Both the position numbers and the translations under genes were made by a program. A DNA stretch of 64,000 bases from an uncultured bacterium. GTDB lineage: Bacteria > Oederibacteriota > PGYV01 > CAWJRG01. Numbering within the stretch: position 1 is the first letter of the stretch; each line of letters begins with the position of its first letter. The stretch lies in assembly GCA_963845185.1 (NCBI GenBank), contig CAWJRG010000005.1, positions 288,001-352,000 of the forward strand. The letters are read 5' to 3'. Of this stretch, positions 1 through 30,831 are shown piece by piece. The notes under the pieces are model-generated. The model made no database searches. It was not told the DNA's origin and saw nothing but the letters and a program-made list of their open reading frames with translations.

Positions 1-3000
1 TTATACACGCTTATGTTCATCACATACGGGAACGGTATCGGCGTTATCGTTATTGTAACTGTCTGCGTGTTTGTATCCGTATATGTTATTGTCGCGCTCA
101 GCGTATTTGTCGCCGTATTTGTCGCAGTCATCGTTCTTGTATCTGTGTATGTTACTGTTAATGTTATTGTGTCCGTATATGTATATGTCTGCGTAAGTGT
201 GCTTGTATATGTGGACGTCGACGTTGACGTGTATGTAGGCGTATCTACAGGCGTATCTGTGCATGTTGATGTCAGCGTCACGGTGCTGGTTGAAGTCGCG
301 CTCACCGTGGACGTAAAAGTCGGAGTATCAGTAGTCGTATCAGTATATGTCGGTGTATCTGTAGTCGTGCTGCTTGGCGTCGGGCTTACAGTAGGCGTGT
401 ACGTAGGCGTATCCACAGGCGAATCTGTATATGTCGGCGTTGCCGTATCTGTCGGCGTGTCTGTATATGTGAATGTCGGCGTGTCTGTATCCGTATACGT
501 CGGCGTGTTTTGCACTGTATCTGTAAATGTCGGCGTCGCTGTGCTTGTGTATGTATCTGTCTGCGTGTATGTCAGGGTTATTGTTTTTGTCGCTGTGTAT
601 GTCGGCGTGAATGTTGCGGACAGTATCACAACCGTGAATGTCATTGTTATCGTATATGTAGGCGTCACCGTGTTTGTATATGTCGCAGTATTCGTGCTTG
701 TGTATGTCACTGTCATCGTGTACGTGGATGTCGGCGACAGCGTATTTGTATATGTCGGTGTCGACGTAGGTGTGTCCGACTGTGTATCTGTCACTGTTAT
801 TGTCCTCGTTGCCGTGTATGTCGGCGTGAATGTCGCGGACAGTATCACAACAGTAAATGTCATTGTTATTGTATATGTCGGCGACACCGTATCCGTATAT
901 GTTGCCGTATTTGTGCTTGTGTACGTCACTGTCCGTGTATACGTGGGCGTGGGTGACATCGTATCTGTGAATGTCGGCGTTGCTGTCGTCGTCACTGTCT
1001 GCGTATCTGTCAGCGTTATTGTATCTGTAGGCGTATTTGTCCTGGTTATTGTGTATGTCGGCGTATATGTCGCGGACAGTATTACAACCGTAAATGTCAT
1101 TGTTATTGTATATGTCGGCGTAACCGTATTTGTCACTGTTGGCGTCACTGTCATCGTGTCAGTGTATGTGTATGTATATGTCACTGTACGTGTGTATGTC
1201 GGCGTCGGCGACATCGTATCTGTGTATGTCGGCGTTGCCGTCGCCGTTACTGTCTGCGTGTCCGTCAGCGTTATTGTATCTGTCGGCGTATTTGTTTTGG
1301 TTATGGTGTATGTCGGCGTGATTGTCGCGGACACTATCACAACCGTGAATGTCATTGTTATTGTGTATGTCGGCGTTATCGTGGATGTGTCAGTCATTGT
1401 CACTGTGGTGGTATCTGTAAATGTATATGTATATGTTACCGTGCGGGTATATGTAGGTGTCGGTGACTGAGTATTTGTGAATGTAGGCGTCGGCGTAGGC
1501 GTGTCAGACTGCGTGAACGTAGGCGTAAATGTCCTGGTATCTGTCACTGATACTGTAATAGTCACGGTTGAAGTAAAAGTCGGCGTATCGGTCACTGTAA
1601 CAGTATTTGTGTATGTGTATGTTACTGTCTGCGTGTATGTAAAAGTATACGTCCTGGTAAATGTAACTGACACTGTGTTTGTCACGGTTAAAGTATCAGT
1701 AGGCGTAGGAGTCACTGTAATAGTATTTGTGTACGTATATGTCACTGTGCGCGTGTATGTCGGCGTCGGCGACATGGTATTTGTGAATGTCGGCGTCGGA
1801 GTCGGCGTGTCAGACTGCGTGTATGTAGGCGTATATGTCCTGGTATCTGTCACCGACACTGTATTTGTTACCGTGTAAGTAACGGTCGGTGAAGGCGTAA
1901 CTGTAATAGTATCTGTGTACGTATATGTCACTGTGCGCGTGTATGTCGGCGTCGGCGATGCGGTGTCTGTGAATGTCGGCGTCGGAGTCGGCGTCATCGT
2001 CTGAGTATAAGTCGGCGTATATGTCCTCGTGAATGTCACTGACACTGTATTTGTATTTGTCGGCGTAAACGTAATTGTATCTGTCACTGTATTAGTCCGT
2101 GTGTATGTGTATGTCACTGTCTGGGTGTATGTGGGCGTCCGCGTATAAGTAAATGTCGGGCTCGGGTTCGGCGTATTTGTGCGTGTAGGCGTGTCTGTAT
2201 ATGTCGGCGACGCGCATGTGTCATGCATAACAACCGTGGACACAGCCGAAGCAGACATACCGGGGTATGAAAGCGAGGCATTATTGTTCCAGTTGCATGT
2301 CTGCAAATGCTGGTTGTTTGTCAGCCACATCTGCCATGTATAGCATCCCGTGAATCCGCCGGGTGTCGGAACAATAGACACCGTGCTTACACCGTTATTT
2401 GTATTGACGTTTATTGTTGATATTCCTCCGGCATTTACGTTTGAATTGTTGCTCCAGTTAAACTGCCAGCCGTCCGCGTTATCGCTTGACCAGTCGTCAA
2501 TAATGGTAAAATTCTGCGTCGCCCCGCCGCTGGTGTTGCAGAACACGAGGTTGAATGTAACATTATCATTGGTAGTTGTTATTGTCGTTTTGCTGGCTGA
2601 TTTTGTCAGGGTAAATAACGGCGTGGGTGTTGGCGTGATTGTGGGTGTCGGCGATACGCATAGGACATTAAATACAACAGGGTTTGAGAATTCCGGTACC
2701 AAGCTTGTAGCTCCTATACCTCCGACATTTGTAAAGCTCTGGGCGCAGGCCGATGTGGATGCCCACCACGTGTACGAACCGCTCTGGTCGCTTATGTTGC
2801 CAAGGTTCCAGCTTACCGGGCTTGTTCCGCTTGCGCCCGGGCTTGACCCCTGATATGCCAGCCCTGAAGGTACCGTGTCATACAGCACGGCGTTTGCCGC
2901 CACCCTTGGCACTAACACCGTAAAATTATTATATTCGTCCTGTACAGTGCCGTTGCCGTCACCTGACTGGTTCCCGACTCCCGGCCTCCAGTCTGTATAT

Positions 3001-4715
3001 GTGGCTCCTGCAGCGCAGCTGTAAGGGCTGCTAGTAGCTGCTGCTCCTGCGTCTGTCCATGACACCTGGTAACCAGTTGGTTCAGGCTGGCCAATTGCCC
3101 ATATTTTTGAGTTAAATATATAGTCTGTACCGTTTGTCGTCATATATGTCTTGGTCCTGTACCATGTGTTCCCTGTTATAACAATCGCGCTTGAAGCGCC
3201 GCCATACGTGCATGCTGTCCCGCCCCCGCATCTTTGTATTGCCATATACCCGTTTGCAGGCGCAGTGTCTATTGATAAAAGCAATGAATATCCGTAGTTT
3301 GCGGTCCCTGAAAGGCCGTTATTCCTTAAAATCACCAGGCCGTCTGCACCCGGATATGTGCCCGGGTTTATAAAAACATCTGCTTCAATTACTCCGGTGC
3401 ATACCTGCACATTGGAAGGTGTCGGGTCGTCAAGTAAAAGCGCAGGATATGATGATGACTGGCCTGCTCCTGTTAAAATCCTGTCCCCTGTATTGCACGG
3501 GTCTGAAATTGTCCACGTGCCGTTGTCGGTATTATAAGGCTGGAATTTCCATCCTGCCGGCGGCGTGGTTTCAGAAGAGCCTGTGTTTGTGTCGTCAAAA
3601 GCCCTTAGTGCCTTTAGCTGGTCGCCGTTTACCTGGTAATTTAGGTAATATGTTATGGTTACCGAAGCGCTGGGCAGTTTCATGAATGTGTCCACGCTTT
3701 CAAGCTTCTGCACTGATATTGCAGCCTGCCCGACTATCAGAGTCGCTGACGCGCTGGCATTGCTGCCCCCGCTTGTTGCGTTTGCCGTATTCGGCACTGA
3801 TGTGCCTGACGCCATTGCTGTTGTCATCCTCATCAATATCCATACAGTGCCTGATTTCGTGTATGTGGAGGTCGGGAATGTCCATGTTACTGTGCCTGAC
3901 GTTGCTCCAGCACCAGGTGAACTCACGCTTCCGCTATTTATCGAGCTTGGGCCGACAGACACCAAAGCAAGACTTCCTCCGCCCGGCAGGCTGTCTGTTA
4001 TTGTGAGCGGCCCGTTGCCGTATGTATAATCCATGGAAAATAATACAAGGTCCCCTACTGACTGCAATACACCCTCTACTCTCTTATCCAAAGTTATTGA
4101 ATTCGCCGGCGGTGTAGGCAGCGGCCAGCTGAAAATCTTTGTATCCCCGTTATTTGCGCAGGCGTTTGACTGGAAACCAGCCCAGTCGCTTGAAGCCAAA
4201 TTCGCGCTTTTCATTGCCGCCATCAGGTATAAAGTCGTTGCCCCGCACGAAGTGCCCATGTCAGCTGCCTGCGGCATGGTCAGGTTAAACTGCAGGCTTT
4301 GATTGTAACCGTCAAAAGAGCCGCTATTTGCGCATGTGTCGCAGGTTAGCGGTGTCGCAGCAGGAACCGGCAACTGATAGCCCATGTTGTTGCCTGTAGT
4401 TTGCGCGTTATTCGGATTTGGGGTATGCACATCAACTCCGTTAAAGCTTACTAAAAACATTTGTCCGCCTGTATTTGCAGGCGACCAGGTCCCGCTTGTG
4501 CTTACGGCTATATCAAGTTCGTTCTGGTTGTAAGCGTCGTGGCATACATTCATGGTTACGACAAATTGCTGCCCCCAGCCCGGGTTGGCAGGATTCATCG
4601 TCATTGATAGTATTGCAGGAATGCCAGCAAAGATATAATTGCCGGATAATAAAAATATTAGTATTATTATTCCTTTTAAAATATTTACCTTTTTAAACTT
4701 TTTCAGTATTTTCAT
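1..4715 (-). CDS. Giant Thr-X-repeat secreted surface protein, paralog 1 (type B), 3'-partial
   Basis: ATG at 4715 (MKILKKFKKVNILKGIIILIFLLSGNYIFAG..., signal peptide) is in frame with ...[18 protein letters not shown] at the window edge. The head aligns by eye with 12270..17927. It is absent from the ORF track because its stop lies outside the window. Confidence 0.9.
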   Translation of the reverse strand, partial: MKILKKFKKVNILKGIIILIFLLSGNYIFAGIPAILSMTMNPANPGWGQQFVVTMNVCHDAYNQNELDIAVSTSGTWSPANTGGQMFLVSFNGVDVHTPNPNNAQTTGNNMGYQLPVPAATPLTCDTCANSGSFDGYNQSLQFNLTMPQAADMGTSCGATTLYLMAAMKSANLASSDWAGFQSNACANNGDTKIFSWPLPTPPANSITLDKRVEGVLQSVGDLVLFSMDYTYGNGPLTITDSLPGGGSLALVSVGPSSINSGSVSSPGAGATSGTVTWTFPTSTYTKSGTVWILMRMTTAMASGTSVPNTANATSGGSNASASATLIVGQAAISVQKLESVDTFMKLPSASVTITYYLNYQVNGDQLKALRAFDDTNTGSSETTPPAGWKFQPYNTDNGTWTISDPCNTGDRILTGAGQSSSYPALLLDDPTPSNVQVCTGVIEADVFINPGTYPGADGLVILRNNGLSGTANYGYSLLLSIDTAPANGYMAIQRCGGGTACTYGGASSAIVITGNTWYRTKTYMTTNGTDYIFNSKIWAIGQPEPTGYQVSWTDAGAAATSSPYSCAAGATYTDWRPGVGNQSGDGNGTVQDEYNNFTVLVPRVAANAVLYDTVPSGLAYQGSSPGASGTSPVSWNLGNISDQSGSYTWWASTSACAQSFTNVGGIGATSLVPEFSNPVVFNVLCVSPTPTITPTPTPLFTLTKSASKTTITTTNDNVTFNLVFCNTSGGATQNFTIIDDWSSDNADGWQFNWSNNSNVNAGGISTINVNTNNGVSTVSIVPTPGGFTGCYTWQMWLTNNQHLQTCNWNNNASLSYPGMSASAVSTVVMHDTCASPTYTDTPTRTNTPNPSPTFTYTRTPTYTQTVTYTYTRTNTVTDTITFTPTNTNTVSVTFTRTYTPTYTQTMTPTPTPTFTDTASPTPTYTRTVTYTYTDTITVTPSPTVTYTVTNTVSVTDTRTYTPTYTQSDTPTPTPTFTNTMSPTPTYTRTVTYTYTNTITVTPTPTDTLTVTNTVSVTFTRTYTFTYTQTVTYTYTNTVTVTDTPTFTSTVTITVSVTDTRTFTPTFTQSDTPTPTPTFTNTQSPTPTYTRTVTYTYTFTDTTTVTMTDTSTITPTYTITMTFTVVIVSATITPTYTITKTNTPTDTITLTDTQTVTATATPTYTDTMSPTPTYTRTVTYTYTYTDTMTVTPTVTNTVTPTYTITMTFTVVILSATYTPTYTITRTNTPTDTITLTDTQTVTTTATPTFTDTMSPTPTYTRTVTYTSTNTATYTDTVSPTYTITMTFTVVILSATFTPTYTATRTITVTDTQSDTPTSTPTYTNTLSPTSTYTMTVTYTSTNTATYTNTVTPTYTITMTFTVVILSATFTPTYTATKTITLTYTQTDTYTSTATPTFTDTVQNTPTYTDTDTPTFTYTDTPTDTATPTYTDSPVDTPTYTPTVSPTPSSTTTDTPTYTDTTTDTPTFTSTVSATSTSTVTLTSTCTDTPVDTPTYTSTSTSTYTSTLTQTYTYTDTITLTVTYTDTRTMTATNTATNTLSATITYTDTNTQTVTITITPIPFPYVMNISVY

Positions 4716-4762
4716 GTAAATTTGACTTCCTTGTTTTTGTTTACACGTGCAAGTACTTTGTT

Positions 4763-4790
4763 TTAGACAACGAAATCCCGTTTAAGTTTC
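4763..4790 (-). promoter_or_regulatory. ECF-sigma-type promoter GAAAC-N17-GTCTAA
   Basis: GAAACTTAAACGGGATTTCGTTGTCTAA, about 50 nt upstream of the ATG; the motif recurs at 7 loci in the window. Confidence 0.75.
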
Positions 4791-4923
4791 GGTCTTTTTT
4801 TGTAATTTTTACTAATATTTTATACAATAAATTAAAGGAAATATGCCGGTTTGGCAAAATAATATTGATATTTTATATCTTATCCCCTGTTTTTGTCAAT
4901 AATTAATTATGGTTTTATGGTAT

Positions 4924-7900
4924 TTACTGCCCCATTTTAATTATTGCTGATAATTTAACTATTTTACGCTCTTTATTGCCTGTATTATCCACGCCTTCCA
5001 CCACGCATATATATGTCCCGCTTGATACTGTCTGGCCGCCTACGCTTTTTAAATCCCAGTTTATGCTGGCAGCGCCAAGGTCGCCGACAAGCGTCCTTAC
5101 AAGCTCGCCTGCTATGTTGTAAATCTTTATTTTTATTGTGCCGTTTGCGCTTGGCTGCCATGTGAATTTCAACGGTGTTGTCGTGTCTCCTGTGTACGGG
5201 TTCGGCAGCGGCTTTACGGTCCCAAGTACGCCGGCGCTTCCTTCGTTTAATATTGTAATTGACTTGCTTATCTTTGAGTTTACGCCCTGGCTTGTCTTTA
5301 CTATAATCTGCACCTCATATACCCCGCTCTGCAGGTAATCTCCCTGCGAATTTTTTCCGTCCCATGTCAAAGGCGGATTTGACGAAGTGTAACTGATTGT
5401 TATAGGCGGCGCTCCCTTGCCCACAGGGAATACGTCATTGCTGCCGTTACTATTGCTTAAGTTAAGCGAAACCTGGCCGCTGCCGCTATATGGCGCCCTT
5501 ATTGTCTGCACAAGTTCTCCAGCGCTGTTGAAGATATTCACCTGCACGTACTGGTCTTCATTAATCGCAGTTATCTGCTTTGTTATTATTTCCGAATGGC
5601 CGTACTGGTCCGTTGTAGTTTCCTTTATATAATACACCCCGTCCGCCACGTTCTGGCCCGCGCTGTTTGTCCCGTCCCACGTGAAATCAGAGTAAGTGTT
5701 TTTCTGCTGGTCAGGCGTTTGTATGCCGGGCACCCTTATTGTCAGCGCTGTCCCTGAGCCGGGCGACACCACTCCTGTCTGGCTGCCGTTCAGCAGCAGC
5801 TGTACCTGCTGCGCCTCCTGCGATGTAGTGGTATTTGCTATCGTTTTCACCAGCTCGCCTGCCTCGTTATACACGCTTATGTTCATTATGTACGGGAACG
5901 GTACAGGCGTTATAGTTATTGTGGGCGATTGGGTGAAAGTTACCGTGAATGTTATTGACGGCGTCATGGTGCATGTCTCGGAAAATGTTACTGTAAGTGT
6001 ATTTGTGTATGAGGCGGTTACGGTATATGTCGAAGTCGCGGACGCAGAAGCAGTCGAGGTCAGTGTGCGCGTCAGCGTGTATGTGGAGCTCGGCGTGTCT
6101 GTAACGGTATATGTGCGCGTATCCGTGACAGTATATGTCGGCGACAGTGTATTTGTCACTGACGGCGTTGCTGTCAATGTCATTGTATCCGTCAATGTGG
6201 GAGTATAAGTGATTGTGTCTGAAGGCGTGGCTGTATCAGTGATTGTGCGCGTCGCTGTTAATGTCATTGTATCAGTGAGCGTAGGTGTATAGGTGTAAGT
6301 ACAGGTGGGCGACAGCGTGTTTGTCACCGTAGGTGTGGCTGTGAACGTGCTCGTTTCGGTAAATGTCGCCGTATCTGTGCGTGTATACGTCACTGTCAGC
6401 GTGTCGGTCTGTGTCGCTGTTATTGTACCTGTATCTGACGGCGTTATCGTGTTTGACGCTGTGGGTGTGTCCGTAAAAGTGCTGGTCTGCGTGAATGTTG
6501 GCGTAAATGTGGCTGTATCTGTAGGCGACAATGTATTTGTGACGGTCGGTGTATTTGTAAATGTGCTCGTTGCCGTGAAGGTGGATGTATCCGTCTTGGT
6601 ATTTGTTAGTGTGCTGGTTTGGGTAAATGTCGAAGTGAATGTCGGTATAAAAGGCGTGCCCGTCACTGTAGCCGTATCTGTCTGTGTAAATGTCAAAGTC
6701 ACTGTCGGTGTGTTTGTCGGGGTGCCCGTTGGTGTGGCCGTAGGAGAGGCCGTCGCTGTGGACGTATAGGTTTTAGTAAGCGTTGCTGTGTATGTGGGCG
6801 TCCACGTGGGCGTATTTGTCGGTGTATCCGTAAGCGTAGGGTTTGGCACTGTATTTGTCAGCGTCGGCGTTGATGTGACTGTGTACGTGTACGTAGGCGT
6901 TTGTGTGCTTGTATAAGTATCGGTCACCGTGTACGTGCTTGTCGGCGTAGGCGAGTTTGTATATGTCGGCGTTGCCGTATATATCGGCGTATTGGTGGCT
7001 GATTTTATTATCTGCGTGAATGTCATTGTTATCGTGTATGTCGGCGTTATTGTGCTTGTCGCCGTCTGCGTCACCGTGAATGTATTTGTATTTGTGGATG
7101 TATATGTCACTGTCTGTGTATACGTGGGCGTCGGCGACGCTGTAACTGTATATGTAGGCGTTGCAGTCGGCGTGGATGTTTTTGTGTCCGTATTTGTCAC
7201 CGTGTTTGTGTCGGTTAATGTCGGCGTTATCGTATATGTCGGAGTATCGGTGGCAGATTTTATTATCTGCGTGAATGTCATTGTTATCGTGTATGTCGGC
7301 GTTATTGTGCTTGTCGCTGTCTGCGTCACCGTCATCGTGTCGGTAAATGTGAATGTATATGTAACTGTCTGTGTATACGTGGGCGTCGGCGATGCTGTAA
7401 CTGTATATGTAGGTGTTGCAGTCGGCGTGGATGTTTTTGTGTCCGTATTTGTCACCGTGTTTGTGTCGGTTAATGTCGGCGTTATCGTATATGTCGGAGT
7501 ATCGGTGGCAGATTTTATTATCTGCGTGAATGTCATTGTTATTGTGTATGTCGGCGTTATCGTGTTTGTCGCTGTCTGCGTCACCGTCATCGTGTCGGTA
7601 AATGTGAATGTATATGTAACTGTCTGTGTATATGTAGGCGTCGGCGTCGCTGTAACTGTATATGTAGGCGTCGATGTCGGCGTGTCCGTCAGCGTGAATG
7701 TCGGCGTTATTGTCTTTGTGAATGTTGCGGATACTGTATTTGTCAGTGTTGAAGTGTAAGTCGTCGTTGCCGTGATTGTATCGGTAAATGTGAATGTATA
7801 CGTCACCGTCTGGGTATATGTGGGCGTAGGCGATGCTGTAATTGTAAACGTCGGCGTATTTGTAGGAGTGGATGTTTTTGTGTCCGTATTTGTCACTGTA

Positions 7901-10900
7901 TAAGTATCGGTTATTGTCGGTGTTATCGTGTATGTCGGTGTAAATGTTGCTGATAAAGTCACCGGAGTGTACGACATTGTTATTGTATATGTCGGTGTTA
8001 TTGTATCTGTATATGTAGCTGTTACTGTCCTCGTGGCAGTGTATGTGAATGTATAAGTCACTGTCTGCGTGTATGTCGGTGTCGGCGATGCTGTAACTGT
8101 ATATGTCGGTGTCGTAGTAGGTGTGTCAGTCAGCGTAAATGTCGGCGTATACGTCTTTGTAAAAGTCACGGACACTGTAATTGTCACTGTTGAAGTATAA
8201 GTCGGCGTCGCTGTCACTGTAAGTATCTGTTTTTGTGTATGTGTATGTTGGCGAAGGCGTGTCTGTCAGCGTTATCGTAGGCGTATTCGTGAGCGTCGGC
8301 GGGTTTTGCGGCGTATTTGTCGCTGTCGTAGTGTTCGTAAATGTATATGTCACTGTCATCGTGTACGTATCTGTCGGCGACAGGGTGTTTGTGTATGTCG
8401 GCGAGCTGGTAGGCGTTGCTGACTGCGTGTCTGTTAATGTAATTGTCAGTGTTATTGTGTACGTTGGTGTAAATGTAGCTGATATTATAAACGGCGTGAA
8501 TGTAAGCGTTATTGTATATGTCGGCGTTGTTGTTTTTGTAGGCGTTGCCGTATTTGTGCTTGTATATGTCACTGTCTGCGTATACGTGGGCGTTGGCGAT
8601 TGCGTGTTTGTGTAAGTGGAGGTTGCCGTAGACGTCGGCGTGTTCGTGCGCGTCACGGTAATGGTTGGTGTTATTGTATATGACGGCGTAAATGTGGCTG
8701 ACAAAGTTATCGGAGTGTATGACATTGTTATAGTATATGTCGGCGTCTGTGACCTTGTCGGCGTAGCAGTGAATGTGAACGTATATGTCACTGTCTGGGT
8801 GTACGTAGGCGTTGGCGATGCCGTGATTGTATATGTCGGCGTCGCTGTCGGCGTGTCTGTCAGCGTGTATGTAAATGTTATTGTCCTGGTAAATGTCATT
8901 GACACAGTATTTGTCAGGGTCGGGGTATCAGTCCGCGTTGCCGTGGATGTGTCCGTATTTGTATATGTATATGTCACTGTTTGCGTGTATGTAGGCGTCG
9001 GCGATGCCGTATTTGTGTATGTCGGCGTTGCTGTCGGCGTGTCCGTCAGCGTATATGTGGACGTTATTGTCTTAGTGAATGTCACTGATACTGTATTTGT
9101 CTGGGTCGGAGTATCAGTCTCCGTAGAAGTCTTTGTGGCAGTAAATGTATATGTATATGTCACTGTCTGGGTGTATGTTGGTGTCGGCGATGCTGTGTTT
9201 GTGTTCGTCGGCGTTACAGTCGGCGTGTCGGTCAGCGTGTATGTAGGCGTTATTGTCCTGGTAAATGTAACAGTAACCGTGTTTGTCACAGTTGGAGTAT
9301 CAGTCAGCGTAGAAGTCCTTGTTGCAGTATTTGTGAATGTGTATGTCTGCGTCTGCGTGTATGTAGGTGTCATGGTGCGTGTGGCAGTGTATGTCGGCGT
9401 CCGCGTATATGTGTAAGTCGGCGTGAATGTAGGCGTCTGCGCCGCGCACTGGTCCTGCAAAAGTACCGTTGATACAACCGAGGGTACTCCATTAAAAGCC
9501 ACTGAAGCGTTATTATGCCAGTTGCATGTGTTATTTGACTGCGCGTTTCCTATAAACATCTGGAATGTAAAGCATCCTGAAAATCCCGTAGGTGTCGGCA
9601 CAAATATAAATTGAGTCCATCCGGCACTCGGAGTCCCGACATTGGCAGTTACGGAATATAATCCCGGCCCAGCCGGGCTGGTGTAATAAGGGTTCATATA
9701 TTGCCACTGGTCAGCAGAACCGCTCGACCAGTCGTCATAAACAGTAAAATTCTGCGTCACAGCGCCGCTGTTGTTGCATATTACCAGGTTAAATGTAAGC
9801 TGGTCGGTGTGGACGATGTTAGTCGTTTTACTGGATGTTTTTACCAGCGTAAATGCCGGCGTGGATGTCGGTGAAACCGTAGGTGTAGGCGACGTGCACA
9901 GCACGTTGAATACTGTCTGGTTTGAAAATACCGCTGCAGGGCTTCCTGCGCCTGAACCTGCAATACCTGCGACATTTGTAAAACTCTGGTTGCACGCATT
10001 TGTCGTGGCCCACCAAGTGTATGAACCGCTCTGGTCGCTTATATTACCAAGGCTCCACTCTACCATGGGGCTTGTGGTGCCTGCGCCGGGATTTGACCCT
10101 GAGTATGTCAACCCTGTAGGTACCGTATCATACAATGTAGTATTTGCCGATACCCTCACGTTGTATGTCAGGAAATTATTATATGAGTCCTGCGTTGTGC
10201 CGTCCTGGTCGTTTCCCTGCTCGGCTATGCCCGGCCTCCAGTCAGAGTTGGTGCCGCCATGGTCAGGGCATTCCCAGTTCGGGTCTGTGCTTGATGCGCT
10301 GCTGTCTGTATAGGTTAGCTGGTATCCGGTAGGCTCTGCCTGTCCCACCTGCCATACCTTTGCCTGGAAAGTAAATCCGTTTCCGCTTATAAGTATTTTT
10401 ACCCTGTACCATGTATTGCCTGTTATCACAAGTGTTGCAGGGTCAACAAAAGCAGGCCATGAGCAGGCTCCGCCGCCGCATTTTTGTATGCCAACATACC
10501 CGCCCGCAGGCGCAGTATCTATTGACAAAAGCAAAGAGTACGCGTAACCCGCGGCCCCATTCAGGCCGTTGCTTCGGATTATTATAAGAGCGTCCGCGCC
10601 TACGTAAGCGCCAGGATTAATCATAACATCGGATTCTATGATTCCGGAATCGCACATCTGCACATTCGCAGGCGTCGGGTCGTCCAGAAGTAGGTCAGGA
10701 TACACTTTGGCTCCGGTCACGCTTGCTGTTACTATCCTGTCGCCTGTATTGCACGCGTCGCTTATTGTCCATGTGCCATACTGGCCGCTACCGTTGCCGT
10801 CAGGCTGAGCTTTCCAGCCAGGCGGCGTTGAGCCCGGAGGATTATATGCCTGGTTTGGATTGTCGTCAAACATCCTTATTGCCTTTAACACATCCCCGTT

Positions 10901-11950: not shown

Positions 11951-11990
11951 ATTTCATCGCCGCCTTTCAAATCCTTTCTTTTCTATACTA

Positions 11991-12018
11991 TTAGACAATA
12001 TTAAATAGAAAAAGTTTC
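11991..12018 (-). promoter_or_regulatory. ECF-sigma-type promoter GAAAC-N17-GTCTAA
   Basis: ttagac 11991-11996, 17 nt, gtttc 12014-12018 on the plus strand. Confidence 0.75.
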
Positions 12019-12075
12019 GCAAAAAACAGGCAATTCGTTTTATCTTGCGAAATTATTTCTTTTTACCCATATATA

Positions 12076-12104
12076 ATTATACAAAATAAAATACTTTGCG
12101 TCAA
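12076..12104 (-). promoter_or_regulatory. Sigma70-type promoter TTGACG-N17-TATAAT
   Basis: Near-consensus boxes, conserved at 30963-30991 in front of the other type A paralog. Confidence 0.65.
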
Positions 12105-12188
12105 GTTTTTATGTATATAAAATGATATTATTATTCGCAGAATTTAACAAGCCAACCATTAACTTATATTGATTCATTCTATATAAAC

Positions 12189-12216: not shown

Positions 12217-12269
12217 CTATATTATAATGCTTGACTATATTTATATTTACTCTTGCTGTTTAATTATCT

Positions 12270-18180: not shown

Positions 18181-18207
18181 AAAAAAGGCGGCTTTCACCG
18201 CCTTTTT
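18181..18207 (-). terminator. Intrinsic terminator after the DUF2723 genes
   Basis: AAAAAAGGCGG-ctttca-CCGCCTTTTT. Confidence 0.7.
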
Positions 18208-18313
18208 GCCCTATAATCTGCCAATATTGCAGATTATTTACCTTATAACCGCAATTTTTTTCCTTACAACCTTTCCTTCTGCCTGAATTTTAAGAAGATA
18301 TAGGCTGTTTACC

Positions 18314-20650: not shown

Positions 20651-20986
20651 TAAATTATCCTTTCAATTATTATTGTACTTTTCGCATTAATTTAACATAA
20701 AAAAATATTTTTTTCAGAAGTATTTTTTATGGGCATAAATATATCGGGTGGAATTTTTAGTATTTATTTTTTATAGTAAATCATGCCCGACGATTCATAA
20801 TTTTTTCCAAAAATCCGGGTCTGTTTCCTTGATTTTTTTCAAGGCAAAAAAGCTTGTTTTGCTGGTCGCCATTGCTCTCTAATAAGCAAGCGCCAACTGG
20901 CAATAAACGCCTTTCGATTGGTTTGTAATCATACGGAAACCGTTCCTTATTTCTAAAAACGCTTATAAAGGTATAAGCCGTTTACC

Positions 20987-23341
20987 TTATTTCTTTACTT
21001 TTTCCGCATGCTGAATCTGGTTATATAAATTTACAAGCTGCGGATCGTTGCCAAAGACCTGCATTGCCTCTCTTAAAGTGTTTAAAGCCTTGTACGGTTG
21101 TCCTAGTTTAATATATGTTTGGGCTATATCAGTATAATTTACGGCACTTTTATCTGATTCCGATGCTTTCTGAAAGTACTTTAATGCTTCTTCAAAATTA
21201 TTGATTTTAAAATTACATATCCCCATATTTTTATATACTTCAACCGCGGCGTAATTCTGTTCAAGTAAAAATCCGAATAAATCGAGTGCTTTTAAATACC
21301 TGCCCGAAGCCATAAATGCTGCAGCCTGTCCGGATAGCGCTTTAAATTGTGAATAAGTATTTATTTCATCTATCTGATTTACATATTGTTGAAGCATGGC
21401 CTTATTATCACTGCCGTATTGTATTGCTTTTTCAAACATTTCTTTAGCCATAGGCCATAATCTTTCATTAAAATAAATTCCGCCCAATACCTCATATGCC
21501 TTATAATAATTTTCCTTTGCTCTAAAAGTCTCTTTTAAATATTTTATCTGGTTATCTTCGTCACTGATCGCTTTATAAGCCAAAAATAAATCATAATAAG
21601 TATAAGCCTTTGCTGAATTCCAGGGAAATAACAATGCGTATTTATAAGTTTCTATTGCTTCCTTGTATCTTTTTTCATCAAAAAAATCATATGCTTGATT
21701 TGTTAATTGTGCGCTGTACAGCGATATAAGAGCTTTGTCATAATCATCTTTGGCCGCGAATATCCCCCTGAATGCATAATTTTTAAATATCCCCGCCGGA
21801 ATGTGTTCGTTTTCGGCCGCAACCCTAAGCAACAGGCCTTTTGATTTTAGTTTAAAATTACCAATGTGATTTTTCATTTTTCCGGGAAAACCCTGTGAAA
21901 AATAAATGTTTTTTTCAGGAAAATACTTTCCGGTTATATTGCCTATATTGTCCATTACATTTAAATAACCCTGCTTAAGGGTAATTTGCCCGTATTTTTT
22001 TACAATGCTGTTGATTCCCCATTCATGTGAAAGATTATATATTGTCAGAATATTGATGTTGTCCGCTTTATGTTGCACTATCTGCCTGTAGCTGGCCGGC
22101 AGTGCATAATTGTCCCCGTAAGGTATGTAAAAACTCCCTGGTTCCATAGTCGCGGCCACATTATTTTCAAAATCGTAGGAAAGGTAATTAACGCTGCTAT
22201 TATTTATACTGAAATTCAAAAAACCGGCACATAATAAAATTACGATTGAAAGAGAGTAAAACGTATTTTTTAAAAATATCGCTTTTGCGTTTTTTGACAA
22301 TAAATGCATTCCGTTAATTAAAAAAATAAACAGTATATAGATGCTCGGCATTAGGAAGGTTCCCGTTGCCCATTTATATATTTCACCCAAACGCAAAGAA
22401 AATACAACTATGAATAAATTGGTTAAAAGCATACTGAGATAAAAAAATAGAATTTCCTTTTTCCTGCGCCAAAGCTCATAAATACCCAAAATTATGAATA
22501 TCCAGAATACATAAAAATCTTTTAGTAATAAAGTAATAATTTCTTCTATTTGATAATTATTAATGTCTAAATTTGGCAAAGTTTTATGTTCATAACCTGA
22601 TAAAAAAATTAGCCGGAGGAAATCGCCGATATTATCAGGCCTGTCAATAAAAACAAAAATATTCTCATTTTGTATTCTTAAAGGCAAAAAAGCGTATACG
22701 CTTAATCCCAATAATAATAATATTAAGGATATTATGAGATTTTTTACGGCTAATTTTTCCCGGTATTTATAAAAAATATATCCCAGGGCCGGAAAAAAAA
22801 TCAGCATACTCGGCCAATGGTTTGTCAATGAAAGTCCAAAAATATAAATTAACAGGTAAAAACGCCCGGTATTAAATGTGTAAAACAAATTAAAACTTAG
22901 GTATATTAATGCCGATAAAAACAATAAATTCAGTATGTATATCCCGCCTTTTGCCTCAATAGTTTGATTCCAAAACAAAAAGGAAAAAGCCATGACAAAA
23001 ACCCCAAAACAATTTATGATTTTGTTATTGTCGTTAAAAATAAAATAGATATTTTTTTTGATTATGAAATAAAAAAGCAGCAGGGCCATCAGGCCGAGAA
23101 ATATTGCAAATAAGTTTATTCTGAAAGCAGGCGAACCAACCGGCAATAAACTAAATATTTTAGCCGCCATTGTAAAAAGCGGGTATCCCGGAGGGTGGCT
23201 TATTCCGAGGGTATATGCAGATGTTATTGTTTCAGGCGAGTCGTCATTTTTAAATGTCGGAAATGTAGTATATAGATATATTTGAAATATCCCGGCTAAA
23301 GAAACTATTAGTATTATAATTTCTTTGTATTTTTTAATCAT
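20987..23341 (-). CDS. DUF2723 (TMEM260-like) GT-C glycosyltransferase with C-terminal TPRs, paralog
   Basis: Same motifs as 18314..20650. ATG 23341 (MIKKYKEII) aligns with MPKKYKDII of the paralog. Confidence 0.85.
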   Translation of the reverse strand: MIKKYKEIIILIVSLAGIFQIYLYTTFPTFKNDDSPETITSAYTLGISHPPGYPLFTMAAKIFSLLPVGSPAFRINLFAIFLGLMALLLFYFIIKKNIYFIFNDNNKIINCFGVFVMAFSFLFWNQTIEAKGGIYILNLLFLSALIYLSFNLFYTFNTGRFYLLIYIFGLSLTNHWPSMLIFFPALGYIFYKYREKLAVKNLIISLILLLLGLSVYAFLPLRIQNENIFVFIDRPDNIGDFLRLIFLSGYEHKTLPNLDINNYQIEEIITLLLKDFYVFWIFIILGIYELWRRKKEILFFYLSMLLTNLFIVVFSLRLGEIYKWATGTFLMPSIYILFIFLINGMHLLSKNAKAIFLKNTFYSLSIVILLCAGFLNFSINNSSVNYLSYDFENNVAATMEPGSFYIPYGDNYALPASYRQIVQHKADNINILTIYNLSHEWGINSIVKKYGQITLKQGYLNVMDNIGNITGKYFPEKNIYFSQGFPGKMKNHIGNFKLKSKGLLLRVAAENEHIPAGIFKNYAFRGIFAAKDDYDKALISLYSAQLTNQAYDFFDEKRYKEAIETYKYALLFPWNSAKAYTYYDLFLAYKAISDEDNQIKYLKETFRAKENYYKAYEVLGGIYFNERLWPMAKEMFEKAIQYGSDNKAMLQQYVNQIDEINTYSQFKALSGQAAAFMASGRYLKALDLFGFLLEQNYAAVEVYKNMGICNFKINNFEEALKYFQKASESDKSAVNYTDIAQTYIKLGQPYKALNTLREAMQVFGNDPQLVNLYNQIQHAEKVKK

Positions 23342-23355
23342 TTTCACCCTTTTAT

Positions 23356-23514
23356 GACAGCGTTTGTTTTATCAAGCCGTCATTATGGCAGTCAAATAGT
23401 CCTATGGACTATTTGACGGGTAGTTTCCATAAGCTATCATATAAAAACTACCCGACAAAACATTACGCTGTCTTATACCCGCTCAAGTCCGGATTCTATC
23501 CGGACAAGCGGTAT
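23356..23514 (-). ncRNA. Structured 5'-leader element, copy A (long form)
   Basis: P1 ATACC-GCTT-GTCCGGA/TCCGGAC-TTGAGCG-GGTAT; P2 GACAGCGT-AA-TGTTTTGTC...GATAAAACA-A-ACGCTGTC, just before the RBS. Confidence 0.65.
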
Positions 23515-23715
23515 TAATTCATTTAAATTGTTCGTGTTCGCTGCACCCCATCAATTTAACATCAAATAATGTTTTTTTCATTAAAAATTCATGGGATTAT
23601 TTGCTGCTGTTCTTACCCTTTTTACAAATACACGCCAGCCATCTCCGCAAAGTAACCTTTGGCTGCGGCTACCGGATGTCGTGTTTCTGCCTTATAACTG
23701 CCTGCCTGCACAACT

Positions 23716-23743
23716 AAAAAAGGCGGCTTTCGCCGCCTTTTTT
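23716..23743 (-). terminator. Intrinsic terminator after paralog 4
   Basis: AAAAAAGGCGGC-tttc-GCCGCCTTTTTT. Confidence 0.8.
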
Positions 23744-23775
23744 AGTGAAACTTTTACTTATTCGCTATCCCTTTA

Positions 23776-26700
23776 TCACTGCCCCGCTTGAATCACCGCG
23801 GACAGCTTCACTATTTTGGTCTTTTTGTTGCCCATATTATCCACGCCCTGCACGACGCATATATACGTTCCGCTCGATACTGTCTCTCCGCCTACGCTCT
23901 TAAAATCCCATGTTATGCTGGCAGCTGCAAGGTCGCCTATCAGTGTCCTTACCAGTTCACCTGCTATGTTGTATATTTTTATCTTTATTACGCCGCCAGC
24001 GTTTGGTTGCCATGTGAATTTAACAGGCGTTGACGTGTCGCCTATATACGGGTTGGGCAGCATTTTTATGGTCCCTAGCATGTCGGTGTTTCCTTCGTTC
24101 AATAAGGTGACCGCCTTGCTTATCCTTGAAGTTAAGCCCTGGTTTGTCTTTACCACAATCTGTATCTCATAAACCCCGCTCTGCACATAGTCTCCCAGCG
24201 AATTTTGCCCGTTCCATGTCAGCGGAGGATTTGCAGAATCATAATTAATTACTATCGGCGGCGCCCCCTTGCCTACCGGGAATACGTCGTTGCTGCCGTT
24301 AACGTTGCTCAGGTTGAGCGATACCTGGCTTGTGCCGTTATACGGTCCTGATATTGTCTGCACAAGCTCTCCCGCGCTGTTGAATATATTTACCTGCACA
24401 TACTGGGTCTCGCTGATAGTTGTTATCTGCTTTATTATTATATTGGTATGCCCGTACTGGTCTGTTGTAGTTTCCTTTATGTAATATACCCCGTCTGCCA
24501 CGGTCTGGCCCGCGCTGGTTGTCCCGTCCCACGAATACTGCGCGTATCCGTTTTTCTGCTGGTCAGGAGTCTCAAGTCCCGGAACCTTTATCGTAAGCAG
24601 CGTGCCTGAGCCGGGCGACATTACCCCTGTCGGGGTGTTGTTCAGGAGCAACTGCACATCCTGCGCTTCCTGCGACGTAGTAGTATTTACTATGGTTTTT
24701 ACAAGCTCTCCAGCCTCATTATATACGCTTATATTCATAACATACGGGAAAGGAACAGGCGTTATTGTTATTGTGGGCGACTGCGTACCGGTTTCCGTAA
24801 ATGTTATTGACGGAGTCATGGTGCTTGTCTGAGAGAATGTTACTGTAAGCGTATTTGTGTATGACACGGTTACGGTATATGTCGCTGTCGCGGATGCGGA
24901 AGCAGTCGAGGTCAATGTGCGCGTCAGCGTGTATGTGTATGTCGGCGTACTTGTTACTGTATAAGTGCGAGTGTCTGTGACCGTGTATGTAGGCGACAGC
25001 GTGTCTGTTACTGTCGGAGTCGGCGTCAGTGTCATTGTATCTGTCAATGTCGGAGTGTCGGTAACCGTGCATGTAGGCGTATCTGTATTGGTAATTGTGC
25101 GGGTCGATGTAAGCGTCAATGTCTCGGTGAATGTCGGCGTATTCGTGTAAGTGTATGTCGGCGACAGCGTATTGGTCACGGTCGGTGAGTCTGTTTGTGT
25201 GCTTGTTTCGGTAAATGTCGCGGTATCTGTGCGCGTGGGTGTAGATGTCATTGTATCGGTTTCTGTCGGTGTCACTGTCCATGTGTCTGACGGCGTTATT
25301 GTGTTTGACTGTGTTACCGTGTCCGTAAAAGTGCTTGTCACCGTGAATGTCGGCGTGCATGTAGCCGTATCGCTCGGCGACAATGTGTCCGTCACTGTCG
25401 GCGTGTTTGTAAATGTACTTGTCTCCGTGAATGTGGGTGTATATGTCTTAGTATTTGTAAGCGTGCTGGTTTCAGTTGACGTAGATGTAAATGTAGCTAT
25501 GAAAGGCGTACCAGTCACTGTGGGCGTGTCTGTCTGCGTAAATGTCGGTGTCCACGTAGACGTGTTTGTCGGCGTGCCTGTGGGCGTAAATGTCGGTGTC
25601 CACGTAGACGTGTTCGTCGGGGTTCCCGTGGGCGTAAACGTAGGAGAAGCTGTGACCGTGTCCGTCTGCGTATATGTCGATGTATACGTCCTGGTTGCCG
25701 TCAATGTCGGCGTTATTGTGGCCGAGAATATTATCTGTGTGAATGTCATTGTTATCGTGTATGTCAGCGTCAGCGTGCTTGTGTACGTGCTTGTCTGCGT
25801 GTATGTGGGAGACGGCGAAGTTGTGTCTGTATATGTTGCTGTTGCCGTCGGCGTAGGCGTCAGCGTGCTTGTCAGCGTTAATGTATATGTCGACGTATAA
25901 GTCCTGGTTATGGTGTATGTCGGCGTGAATGTTGCGGACAGTATAACAACCGTGAATGTCATTGTTATGGTGTATGTCTGCGTTATGGTGCTCGTTACCG
26001 TCTGTGTAATCGTGTATGTAGCTGTATTTGTGGATGTATATGTCATTGTCTGCGTATATGTGGGAGTCGGCGATGTCGTGTCTGTGTATGTCGATGTTGC
26101 CGTCGGCGTAGGCGTCTGCGTACTTGTCAGTGTTAATGTATATGTAGACGTATAAGTCCTGGTTATGGTGTATGTCGGCGTGAATGTTGCGGACAGTATA
26201 ACAACCGTGAATGTCATTGTTATGGTGTATGTCTGCGTTATGGTGCTCGTTACCGTCTGTGTAATCGTGTATGTGGCTGTATTTGTGGACGTATATGTGA
26301 CTGTCTGCGTGTATGTGGGAGTCGGCGATGCTGTATTTGTGTATGTCGGCGTCGCAGTAGGTGTAGATGTTTTTGTATCAGTCGGTGTTATTGTATAAGT
26401 CGAGGTTAGCGTAGGCGTTGCCGTGAATGTCGGAGTAATGGTGGCCGAGAATATTATTGTCGTGAATGTCATTGTTATGGTATATGTCGGCGTTATCGTG
26501 GCTGTCACTGTCGGCGTCACTGTCATTGTGTCTGTATATGTGGATGTATATGTCACAGTACGCGTATAAGTGGGCGTCGGCGATGCTGTATCTGTGTATG
26601 TAGGCGTTGCCGTCGGCGTATACGTCAGAGTGTACGTCAGCGTTATTGTATCTGTTGGAGTATCTGTCCTGGTTATAGTATATGTAGGCGTAAATGTAGC

Positions 26701-29700
26701 CGATAATATCACAATAGTGAATGTCATTGTTATCGTATATGTTGGCGTTATTGTAGATGTGTCAGTAGGCGTCACTGTAACAGTATTCGTGTACGTGGAT
26801 GTGTATGTCACCGTGCGCGTGTATGTTGGAGTCGGCGATGCCGTATTTGTATATGTCGGTGTCGCCGTAGGCGTGTCGGTCAGCGTGAATGTGGGCGTGA
26901 ATGTCCTGGTAAATGTCACTGACACCGTGATTGTAAGGGTTGAAGTGAAAGTCGGCGTCGCTGTTACAGTATCGGTGAATGTGGATGTATATGTAACTGT
27001 CTGAGTGTAAGTAGGGGTTGGCGATGCTGTAATTGTATATGTAGGAGTATTCGTAGGCGTCGATGTTTTTGTATCCGTCAATGTCACGGTATATGTAGGG
27101 GTATTTGTAGGTGTTATAGTAAATGTCGGCGTATATGTCGCGGACAGTATCACAATCGTGAATGTCATTGTTATCGTGTATGTAGGCGTTATTGTGGGCG
27201 TTGCTGTAGGTGTATAAGTCTTTGTGTCCGTGTTTGTGTATGTATATGTCACTGTATTAGTGTACGTGGGCGTCGGCGATGCCGTGTTTGTAAATGTAGG
27301 TGTAGCCGTAGGCGTATAAGTCAGCGTGAATGTAGGCGTATATGTCTTTGTAAAAGTCACTGACACTGTGATTGTCACCGTATCAGTGTACGTCGGCGTC
27401 GCTGTAACTGTAATAGTGTATGTGTATGTATATGTCACTGTCTGCGTGTATGTGGGCGTAGGCGATGCTGTATTTGTAAATGTCGGCGTATTTGTCGGCG
27501 TATAAGTCCGGGTGAATGTCGGCGTAAATGTATATGTATATGTCGGCGAAAGCGTGTTTGTGAATGTCGGCGTAGGTGTTGCCGTATTCGTAGATGTGTA
27601 TGTCGGCGTATATGTCCTGGTAAATGTCACGGTATTTGTATATGTCGATGTCAAAGTCACTGTAATAGTGTATGTGTATGTATATGTCACGGTCTGCGTG
27701 TATGTGGGCGTCGGTGTTGTAGTGTTTGTGAATGTAAGCGTCGCCGTGGGCGTATCAGTCAGTGTATAAGTAGGCGTATAAGTCCTGGTATATGTAACGG
27801 ACACTGTAATTGTAACGGTATAAGTGTATGTCGGCGTAGGGGTTATGGTTATAGTATCCGTGTATGTGTATGTAACTGTGCGCGTGTATGTCGGCGTAGG
27901 CGTAGTTGTGTCTGTAAACGTAGACGTCGGCGTAGGCGTGTCGGTAAGCGTGTATGTAGGCGTATCTGTCTTGCTGACTGTCTGGGTCACTGTATTTGTC
28001 ACGGTCAGAGTATAAGTCGGCGTCGGAGTAACTGTAATAGTGTCTGTGAATGTATATGTAACTGTCACCGTGTACGTATATGTCGGCGTATATGTCTTTG
28101 TATATGTAGGCGTAGGCGTGAATGTAAATGTAGGCGTGCTTGTATCTGTGTATGTCGGCGACAGCGTGTTTGTAAGTGTATATGTGTATGTCGGTGTGTC
28201 ACTCCTGGTGTATGTCGGAGTGGGCGTCATTGTGTATGTCGGCGACAGAGTGTTTGTGAGTGTGGGAGTCGAAGTATATGTAACTGTTTTCGTAAATGTG
28301 TATGTCGGTGTTATTGTGAAAGTCGGCGACGAGCACTGGTCTGACAGAAGCACCGTGGATACAGGCGATGGCAGGCCGTTCCATCCGAGCGAAACGTTAT
28401 TGTGCCAGTTGCATGTGTTGTTTGACTGGGCATTGTCAAGGGCCATTACCCACGTAAAGCATCCAGTAAACCCTGTGGGTGTCGGCACCAACACAAATGT
28501 GGTCCAATATTGGCTCGGGGAGCCAACGCTGGCTGTCAGGGAATATATACCATTGCCTGCCGGTTGTATGTTATACGGGGTATTATACTGCCACTGGTCT
28601 CCCGGAGAGCTCGACCAGTCGTCATAAACAGTAAAATTCTGCATTATCGCGCCGCTGTTGTTGCATACCACAATGGTAAATGACAGCTGGTCTGTTTTTA
28701 CTATATTTGTGGTTTTGCTGGATGTTTTGGATATTGTAAATGCAGGAGTGGATGTTGGCGTGACCGTGGGTGTCGGCGATATGCAATTTACGTTAAATAC
28801 AACCGGGTTTGAGTATACTGTCGCAGGACCGCCTGCCCCCGTGCCTGATATGCCTGCCGTGTTTGTAAAGCTCTGGTTGCAGGCTGATGTCGATGCCCAC
28901 CACGTATATGACCCGCTCTGGTCGCTGATATTGCCGAGGCTCCAGTTTAACATACTGCCTGACAATGTCCCGGCCGGGTTTGAACTCTGGTATGTCAATC
29001 CAGTGGGTATTGTGTCAAACAATACAGTGTTTGCCGAAACCCTGGTGTTGTAAGTCATAAAATTATTGTATGAATCCTGCGTTGTGCCGTCCTGGTCATT
29101 TCCCTGCTCGCCCACGCCCGGCCTCCAGTCAGAGTTTGTTCCGCCGTGGTCAGGGCATTCCCAGTTTGTATTTGACTGGTCAGCGGCAGGCGCGGTCCAA
29201 TTTAGCTGAAATGCTGTTGGCTCTGCTGTGCCCACCTGCCATATCTTTGCCGCAAAAGTAAATCCGTTTCCGCTTATTTGTATTTTTACCCTGTACCATG
29301 TATTGCCTGTTATTACAAGTGTTGCAGGGTCAACATAAGTTGGCCATGAGCATGTCCCGCCTCCGCATTCCTGTACTCCCACATACCCGCCCGCAGGCGC
29401 TGTATCAATCGACAGCAGCAAAGAATATGCGTAACCGGCGTTTCCTGTCAGCCCGTTGCTTCGCATTACTATTAAGGCGTCAGATCCGGAATAAGAGCCC
29501 GGATTTATCATTACATCTGATTCTATGATTCCTGAGTCGCACATTTGTGCGTTTGCCTCGTTGGCAGGGTCGTCTAAAAGCAAGTCAGGATAAACCGATG
29601 TCCCGGTTACGCTGCCTGTCATTATCCTGTCTCCTGTGTTACAGGCGTCGCTTATTGTCCAAGTGCCGTTCTGGTTGTTTTGCGGCAGGAACTTCCATCC

Positions 29701-30831
29701 GCTCGGAGCAGTAGTGCTTGATGACCCGTTTGCATCGTCGTCAAACATCCTTATTTCCTTAAGCACGTCTCCGTTTATCTGATAATTAAGGTAATATGTT
29801 ATTGTCACTGACGCGCTCGGCAGTTTCAGGAATGAATTAATGCTTTCTGATTTTTGCAGGGACAGGGCAACTGTGCCCACTGTGAGGTTCGCCGTGGAGT
29901 TGGATGTTGCCGAACCGTTTGTACCTGTGACAGTGTTCGTTATAACTGTGCCTGTTGCTATTGCGCATGTCATCTGCAGCAGGATCCAGACCGTACCTGA
30001 CTTGGTGTAGGTCGTGCTCGGCATAGTCCATGACACTGTGCCTGAAGTTGAGCCAAGCGCAGGTGCGGTTACCGAACCCGTGCTTGGCGCTGGGTTCGGG
30101 CCGTAATCAACAAGCGCGAGGCAACCTCCACCGGGTATCGGGTCTGTTATTGTGGCAGCGCCGTTGCCGTATGTGTAATCAACAGAATAAAGGACTTTGT
30201 CTCCTACAAGCGCGAGCGTGCCCTGCACATTCTTATGCACGGTTACTGACTGCGCCGGCGTCGGAAGAGACCAGTTTAAGGAAGTAATATCGCATGCTGC
30301 CATGCCCTGGCCCCAGTTCTGCATATTATTATTTTCATAAGCAGCATAAAGGTATAAGGTTGATGCACCGCACCCGGATGCTCCCATATCAGTAGCCTGC
30401 GGCATTGTAAGCGTATACTGGACTGATACCGTTTCACCGCTTGTCGAGCCGCCGCATTCTGTGCAGTTCGGCGTAAAAGGGCTTGGAATGGAAACAGGCA
30501 GGCCCATCTGGCAGTTGTTCGGGCAAGGGTTCGCAGAATGCACATCGACGCCAAGCACGCTTACCAGGAATACCTGGCCGCCTGTGTTTTCAACCTGCGG
30601 CGTATTATGCGTGCTTACAGCTATGGCAAAGTCTCCGGCATTATACTGGTCAACGCAGTATGTGGCATAAACATTGAACTGCTGTCCCCATCCGGGGTTT
30701 GTGGGATTCATGGTCAATGAAACCATTCCGTCGGCTTTTATTATGGAAGGAATCAATAGAATTGATAAAATTATAAGGCACAAAGTGCCGCTTTTGAATG
30801 CTTTAGGCGTTTTACTCAATAACTTTTTCAT
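23776..30831 (-). CDS. Giant Thr-X-repeat secreted surface protein, paralog 4 (type A, about 2351 aa)
   Basis: Start moved to ATG 30831 ([13 protein letters not shown], aligning with [13 protein letters not shown] of paralog 2; AGGCGG upstream); same architecture as the other paralogs. Confidence 0.92.
25951..26740. repeat. 255-bp (85-aa) coding tandem repeat
   Basis: (c/a)gtgaatgtcattgttat occurs at 25951, 26206, 26461 and 26716. Confidence 0.8.

Follow-up and report, generated by a model that had tools for sequence, protein, structure and literature searches.

TMEM260-like enzymes within an array of giant threonine-rich secreted proteins belong to a multiplied and scattered bacterial GT117 subfamily, a putative shared O-glycosylation machinery

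Serine-rich repeat adhesins of streptococci and staphylococci are glycosylated by cytoplasmic GT-B enzymes (GtfA/B, with accessory Sec export) from a conserved dedicated locus, and the protein O-mannosyltransferases (PMT, family GT39) of actinobacteria and fungi O-mannosylate Thr/Pro-rich linkers, in bacteria typically as one general enzyme. Here we analyse a stretch of 64,000 nucleotides (the window; contig CAWJRG010000005.1, positions 288,001 to 352,000) from an uncultured bacterium of the Goldbacteria group, whose first 31 kb (window positions 1-30831) encode four giant threonine-rich proteins, TX1 to TX4, and two glycosyltransferase-like membrane proteins, GT1 and GT2. A preliminary description had taken these genes for enzyme-substrate pairs of a dedicated O-glycosylation pathway; as a whole this interpretation is partly supported, and glycosylation itself stays putative.

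The closest described enzyme is human TMEM260 (CAZy GT117, PF11028, PDB 9RQL/9RQM/9RQN). It acts on extended peptides, with D441 as the base, with D52, H67, R264 and Y267 essential (R264A abolishes activity) and with a contribution of R355, while its TPR lobe recruits the extended peptide, the palm contacts positions -3 and -1, and further enzyme contacts are made at +1 (10.64898/2026.03.17.711096). In its available text, the founding paper on TMEM260 says merely that distant homologs exist (PMC10214176), and no characterised bacterial member of GT117/PF11028 was found in the literature searched, outside which most subscription papers lie. For the general O-glycosylation of Bacteroidota, the consulted sections of a 2025 review describe the core oligosaccharyltransferase (OTase) and the ligase as undiscovered, and suggest a search among homologs of the eukaryotic O-mannosylation machinery (PMC12871550).

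GT1 and GT2 are members of a recently multiplied, position-variable TMEM260/GT117 subfamily that have landed in a variable array of such genes, and they do not look like its private enzymes; the locus is a single landing site out of many and does not form a self-contained system of a new kind. As to what this subfamily does, we favour, at about an even chance, a dispersing and diversifying family of periplasmic O-glycosyltransferases that would serve, as shared machinery, the threonine-rich (Thr-X) secretome of the whole genome.

The two enzymes, GT1 (20987..23347, - strand, 786 aa, GC 0.32) and GT2 (18314..20650, - strand, 778 aa, GC 0.30), match PF11028 with 90.1 and 90.0 bits (curated cut-off 24.2) and both carry TPRs, so the preliminary description was right about two co-oriented DUF2723/TPR membrane proteins between the third and fourth paralogs. 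Its TMEM260-like GT-C assignment holds as well, since over residues 17-451 (the GT-C core and palm) GT1 matches the human protein (9RQL) with E 4.8e-18, and a profile of 41 sequences does so at E 8e-72. The predicted structure of GT1 (pLDDT 92.6) matches ALG12, STT3, Pmt2 (Z 25.4) and ArnT, with Z about 25 and a root-mean-square deviation of 3.9-5.8 over 367-440 residues; 9RQL was absent from these structure-search matches, and the fold match is thus to other GT-C proteins. From the sequence match and the model together, both enzymes have the architecture of GT-C core, Rossmann-like palm and TPRs. The equivalents of human D52, H67, Y267 and D441 are D36, H51, Y252 and D412 in GT1, and the same four are kept in GT2; R264 is replaced by Leu (L249 in GT1), with no adjacent Arg to stand in for it, and R355 by Thr (T330 in GT1). 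Among 91 paralogs of the lineage, the residues are conserved in 91 (D52), 90 (H67), 89 (Y267), 88 (D441), 78 (R264) and 8 (R355) cases. Of 32 close homologs, 8, drawn from several assemblies, have Leu at the R264 position, and in all 8 the residue at the E354 position is Gly, which looks like coupled remodelling; Arg is retained in the paralogs G000:C1:69759 and C9:80492. Judged by its residues, the family is an active-looking GT117 group, with the donor site remodelled in the window pair, and since R264 and R355 mark the human mannosyltransferase site, not the Pfam family, and both are changed here, we do not call GT1 and GT2 mannosyltransferases.

The multiplication can be seen in a tree of 91 enzyme sequences (FastTree, midpoint-rooted), which comprises several vertically inherited orthologous groups and a burst of 14 in-paralogs of the genome under study (G000), sister to the gene at G000:C9:977113; GT1 and GT2 belong to this burst, and two copies from another family nest inside it. 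Many of the copies have low GC content at third codon positions (GC3), and they have a start region and a promoter-like motif in common. The ratio of non-synonymous to synonymous substitution rates (dN/dS) is about 0.2 in nine of ten pairs, the tenth being saturated, so the copies evolve under purifying selection. They are also domain mosaics with the largest differences in the acceptor-contacting palm: between GT1 and GT2, identity drops from 95% in the sugar-recognition motif to 58% in the transmembrane part and 35% in the palm, with 59-67% in the TPRs. As the paralogs keep the donor motif and vary the palm, they may differ in the x-T-x contexts that they prefer. A chimeric enzyme was also noted at G000:C9:86527-88521, with a start and sugar-recognition motif like those of the expanded clade (74%) and a body from another group (22-26%).

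The burst copies occupy 12 sites in G000 (after parB, a GGDEF gene, a kinase, a transporter and others). Five of these sites, more than expected by chance, lie directly downstream of a Thr-X gene (a term used for those of the 2,722 crude open reading frame (ORF) calls that have 15 or more Thr within 40 residues), compared with 47 of 1,170 other genes and only 1 of 135 low-GC3 genes; the explanation that any accessory gene adjoins Thr-X genes was ruled out by this last count. A second assembly (one metagenome assembly, unbinned; loci L167-169, L171-176, L178, L183 and L204, whose neighbours match G000 genes) likewise carries the burst at 12 sites, two of which are shared with G000, most of the sites being different. 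The site filled in L167 is cleanly empty in G000, and the slot behind ftsK is taken by a Thr-X gene in G000 but by an enzyme copy in L176. Directly upstream of rpsL-rpsG (G000:C11:116464-121456), two copies of the enzyme are stacked together with a TPR remnant, and this site is filled in L175 too. The expanded-clade copy at G000:C5:466250-469905 is interrupted by two transposase-like ORFs (IS3-like on visual inspection) that have inserted into it. Carriage by phages was considered and not confirmed in any of 32 candidate stretches of viral contigs. Transposon-like ends or a common terminal repeat were likewise rejected, because the 430-nt flanks of 15 copies share just the short start region and the promoter-like motif.

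The neighbouring Thr-X proteins, four paralogous secreted proteins rich in Thr as had been described, each combine a signal-peptide-like start (judged by eye), a head, a stalk and a tail. The heads (about 660 residues, 55-70% identical among TX1-TX4) gave no Pfam match above cut-off (DUF11 weakly in 6 of 9), only Atlas matches under 0.9, and partial Ig and lectin-like Foldseek matches with no clear whole-domain match; in the model of the TX3 head (pLDDT 72), which is all-beta, a lectin-like beta-sandwich is surrounded by DUF11-like Ig folds. The stalks (about 880-1,200 residues) are 40-46% Thr, and a Thr is followed by another two residues on in 86-92% of cases; in TX4 this alternation reaches 0.92, whereas 200 shuffles gave no more than 0.51, and 114 of its 552 stalk Thr are flanked on both sides by hydrophobic residues. 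The tracts are composed of quasi-repeats of 62, 73 and 85 residues common to the paralogs (62/73 in TX3, 62/85 in TX4), and 56-66% of stalk residues lie in Pro-free runs of at least 11. The tails of all three tested proteins (TX2, TX3 and TX4) contain two FlgD-Ig domains and a TIGR04183 match above the cut-off of 23, which gives these proteins the signal peptide and type A C-terminal sorting domain (CTD) that define type IX secretion system (T9SS) cargo. The head family was found in 22 of 24 genomes of the order, and the named homologs of both heads and enzymes are from Candidatus Goldiibacteriota/Goldbacteria, a lineage reported to be cellulolytic in a paper whose available text does not contain the words 'threonine', 'linker' or 'glycosylat' (PMC7031533).

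All six genes lie on the - strand in the order TX4, GT1, GT2, TX3, TX2, TX1. TX4 (23776..30831) encodes 2,351 aa from its ATG, with 691 Thr when counted from an upstream TTG, a stalk of about 1,200 residues and a tail with 29.5 bits to TIGR04183. TX3 (12270..17927) has 1,885 aa and 514 Thr, with the head at residues 28-690, the stalk at 679-1564 and a tail of 26.4 bits. TX2 is broken by a single frameshift near 8218-8225, where no homopolymer is present (a mutation or an assembly error): its N-terminal half (8126..11950) comprises signal peptide, head and stalk start, and its C-terminal half (4924..8217) the T-x stalk, two FlgD_ig domains and the sorting domain (31.8 bits). Several other Thr-X genes of G000 look split too, with 11 same-strand pairs that overlap, though some of these are ordinary overlaps between genes. 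TX1 (1..4715), with signal peptide, all-beta head and T-x stalk, extends 946 bp past the window edge to a FlgD-Ig/T9SS-type tail (whole ORF 1,886 aa). Beyond what had been described, the array runs on with two further head-family genes (G000:C5:280270-285783), and neither type of gene is special to the locus, as there are 25 PF11028 genes and 161 Thr-X ORFs in the genome.

GT1 and GT2 are set apart from the flanking TX genes by terminator-like hairpins: a 15-bp perfect hairpin with T tracts between TX4 and GT1 (23713..23746, - strand), and a terminator-like hairpin 3' of GT2 (18182..18207, - strand). AT-rich promoter-like motifs lie upstream of GT2 (20679..20727, - strand) and, with the same motif, upstream of GT1 (23547..23589, - strand), and recur upstream of other expanded-clade copies. 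Since a scan for promoters and terminators gave counts equal to those in shuffled sequence, the individual hairpins alone are cited. Just after GT2 lies a remnant of another CTD gene, its last 25 or so codons with a KKIAVIR-type end (18238..18312, - strand); across 74 nt it is 84% identical to the end of G000:C1:87793, the gene in front of a sister enzyme, and we regard it as a sign of recombination within the array. Between GT1 and its promoter-like motif is a dispersed palindromic repeat (23353..23526, no strand assigned), with roughly 95 blastn matches on 6 contigs and not specific to this system, which also forms small tandem arrays on contig C9.

The genome (99% complete, 11 contigs) devotes 15.7% of its length to Thr-X ORFs, and of 41 genomes of the phylum it ranks first in both PF11028 genes and T-x pattern matches. 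For export, a SprA-like ORF of 2,145 aa (G000:C9:181574-188011; best E 9e-20, below cut-off), two PorV matches over cut-off, C25 proteins and about 105 ORFs with CTD-like tails were found; a SprA-like match is present in 40 of the 41 genomes, and GldM was matched in none of 11 genomes, with no control matching either. The matches to SprA and PorV, along with the CTD-like tails, point to a T9SS-like route of export in the phylum. Candidates for donor synthesis are a DPM-synthase-like GT2-family protein encoded at G000:C10:903709 (E 1e-27 to 5MLZ) and a mannose-1-P guanylyltransferase-like fusion below cut-off. The orthologue of the GT1/GT2 ancestor has a Wzy_C-TPR ligase gene as its conserved neighbour, lying directly upstream in 13 of 59 enzyme loci of relatives (two orthologous groups), and this Wzy_C-TPR and GT117-TPR pair is a candidate two-step primer/ligase glycosylation module. 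Such pairs were noted at G000:C9:977113-981395 and C6:122044-126269, and at L036, L040, L044, L048, L054 and others; the Wzy_C gene on C6 looks split into two ORFs.

The mechanism that we infer for the shared machinery would be as follows. A polyprenyl-phosphate-sugar, made in the cytoplasm, would be bound by the inner-membrane GT-C core, while Sec-exported and still extended chains would thread the periplasmic TPR/palm groove, where the D441 equivalent would activate the Thr hydroxyl. The likeliest bulk acceptors would be the T-x-T-x tracts of about 160 secreted proteins, TX1-TX4 included, because the x positions are those contacted in the human complex, and because beta-prone tracts would need solubilising. 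Glycosylation would precede export via a SprA/PorV-type translocon that reads the C-terminal tail, and, once coated with sugar, the stalks would form soluble tethers that extend for roughly 200-400 nm (at 0.25-0.33 nm per residue) and bear the Ig/lectin-like head. To hypothesize further, a Wzy_C-linked ancestor could have given rise to at least a dozen paralogs that hop between sites and shuffle domains, with variable palms that would read different x-T-x contexts, and these enzymes would coat the stalks of a T9SS-like secretome of about 160 proteins, building such glyco-stalks; in this complete form the proposal is tentative and, on balance, unlikely.

Several observations weigh against the shared machinery. 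The GT-C fold likewise matches the lipid- and glycan-modifying ArnT and ALG12, besides Pmt2, and R264, essential in the human enzyme, is Leu in both GT1 and GT2. Human TMEM260 is, in the parts of the sources consulted, selective for the IPT sequon (PMC10214176; 10.64898/2026.09.21.753134), a sequon absent from the stalks, and in human cells it is POMT1/2 that serves mucin-like disordered regions, according to the accessible text of a further study (PMC11292533). G000 also has 33 PMT_2 matches, 28 of them other GT-C genes that could glycosylate the stalks, while no GtrA flippase or ManC match was found in it. The partial preference for Thr-X neighbours is weakened in two ways, as some burst sites have duplicated flanks in common and are therefore not independent, and as in the second assembly only 2 of 12 sites (3 counting a CTD gene) follow a Thr-X gene, compared with 3 of 65 in the background (p about 0.08). 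Across the phylum, copy numbers of PF11028 and Thr-X genes are uncoupled: 6 of 41 genomes have 3-16 PF11028 genes but no T-x10 tract, and G027, G034, G031 and G040 have 99-2,848 T-x matches but 0-1 PF11028 genes (two of the 41 genomes have T-x tracts and no PF11028 match, and two well-assembled ones over 2,300 matches and one enzyme). The per-Mb correlation is not significant (rho 0.22 in all 41 genomes, 0.23 in the order); raw counts do correlate within the order (rho 0.60, p 0.002), but we disregarded this since the correlation is gone per Mb.

An alternative is that GT1 and GT2 are kept at this locus since they glycosylate TX1-TX4 specifically. In its favour, 6 of 22 enzyme clusters of G000 have a Thr-X gene no more than 600 bp away, compared with 92 of 1,198 other genes (p=0.006), and for 5 of 13 head-family genes, at three loci, there is a PF11028 gene within 10 kb. 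At L171 of the second assembly the expanded clade is again upstream of a head-family gene, and the palm divergence is consistent with client specialisation. This local excess is what stands of the linkage; no such excess was seen in relatives, where 59 enzyme loci from 8 of the 10 relatives with full match lists, and 40 control regions from 7 of them, were compared. Only 3 of 56 clusters counted (4 were dropped for short flanks) lie by a Thr-X gene, against 16 of 237 genes (p=1), and among the matches listed for the ten relatives 0 of 57 head-family genes are within 10 kb of a PF11028 gene, 37 of these copies being on contigs without such a gene, many of them short, and 81 weaker matches having been left out; a further check gave 0 of 5. 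The enzymes at the three paired loci of G000 come from different tree branches, the closest paralogs of GT1 and GT2 follow a GGDEF gene or, in relatives, stand between core genes, and a joint operon is made less likely by the terminator-like hairpins and by the promoter-like motifs that the enzymes have of their own. Conserved linkage and cross-genome co-occurrence, the marks of a dedicated adhesin-glycosylation locus of the serine-rich repeat protein (SRRP/GtfAB) type, are both lacking here. Synteny, co-occurrence and terminators together ruled out a dedicated operon, the enzyme-substrate pairs of the preliminary description were not borne out, the lack of linkage among relatives being an outcome that it had itself named as refuting them, and local pairing is, in our estimate, improbable.

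A different role for the enzymes has somewhat more to recommend it, although we still hold it to be unlikely: they might act on a lipid-linked or envelope glycan, or on sequons of folded Ig-like domains, with the stalks modified by other GT-C enzymes or unmodified, and the co-location would then reflect shared variable slots and recombination at conserved CTD ends. The Wzy_C-TPR neighbour of the ancestral orthologue, the uncoupling at the level of the phylum, the exchange in the ftsK slot, the CTD-end remnant after GT2, and the conserved repeats and long Pro-free runs of the stalks, compatible with beta structure, all agree with it. However, low-GC3 accessory genes are depleted, not enriched, beside Thr-X genes, and the palm with the D441 equivalent and the TPR lobe, peptide-recruiting in the human enzyme, are retained. 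Lastly, GT1 and GT2 could be inactive or repurposed, e.g., as periplasmic holdases for extended Thr-X chains, with other paralogs catalysing, since they have lost an Arg that most of the lineage retains and whose mutation kills human activity. The recurrence of the same Leu, always with Gly at the E354 position, the dN/dS of about 0.2 and the intact D52, H67, Y267 and D441 equivalents speak against this, and we consider it quite improbable.

Outside the array, directly upstream of it (window 31154-43265), are dnaK, groEL, dnaJ, a Gld-like ABC transporter set (ABC, permease, ABC_transp_aux/DUF7088 and DUF4340) and a DegP/HtrA protease, i.e., genes related to folding and export. An IS110-family transposase lies at 47693-48742, and two paralogous PMT_2-plus-PA14 GT-C genes (52726-58586 and 59209-60771), adjoining a flippase-like gene, lie upstream of a Thr-linker NHL lipoprotein gene (51350-52546).

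If the full proposal of diversifying, Wzy_C-linked paralogs holds, it would give GT117 its first bacterial function and, by the GT117 and Wzy_C pair, point to the still-missing OTase and ligase of Bacteroidota O-glycosylation. With 25 natural variants and an obvious candidate acceptor class in one genome, the question is testable with synthetic T-x peptides, and a positive result would reveal a bacterial route to mucin-like protein glycosylation, supply glyco-engineering with a set of enzymes that differ in their acceptor grooves, and indicate where the OTase of Bacteroidota might be sought.

Compared with human TMEM260, the present enzymes share the GT-C core, the Rossmann-like palm, the TPR lobe and the D52/H67/Y267/D441 equivalents, whereas the human enzyme serves a long IPT-domain sequon with dolichyl phosphate mannose, and here 25 copies with a longer TPR lobe were found, R264 and R355 not being kept in the window pair. 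The serine-rich repeat adhesins are alike in their giant stalks of alternating hydroxy amino acids that raise an adhesive head, and in having glycosyltransferase genes nearby; unlike in those systems, the enzymes here are periplasm-facing GT-C proteins and the linkage is not conserved. PMT enzymes are also of GT-C type and move a lipid-linked monosaccharide to Thr-rich extended regions, as is putatively the case here, and the fold match to Pmt2 agrees with this, but they are of another family, and here the enzymes form a diversifying multigene set. With the general O-glycosylation of Bacteroidota, this lineage shares SprA-like and PorV-like proteins, type A tails and, putatively, periplasmic O-glycosylation of exported proteins; it differs in phylum, in T-x tracts in place of a short D-S/T-hydrophobic motif, and in multi-copy enzymes. 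The conserved Wzy_C-TPR and GT117-TPR pair would fit the OTase-plus-ligase scheme proposed there, and Bacteroides thetaiotaomicron was the sole one of 14 control genomes with a PF11028 match, which makes its protein a candidate for the O-OTase still to be identified in Bacteroidota.

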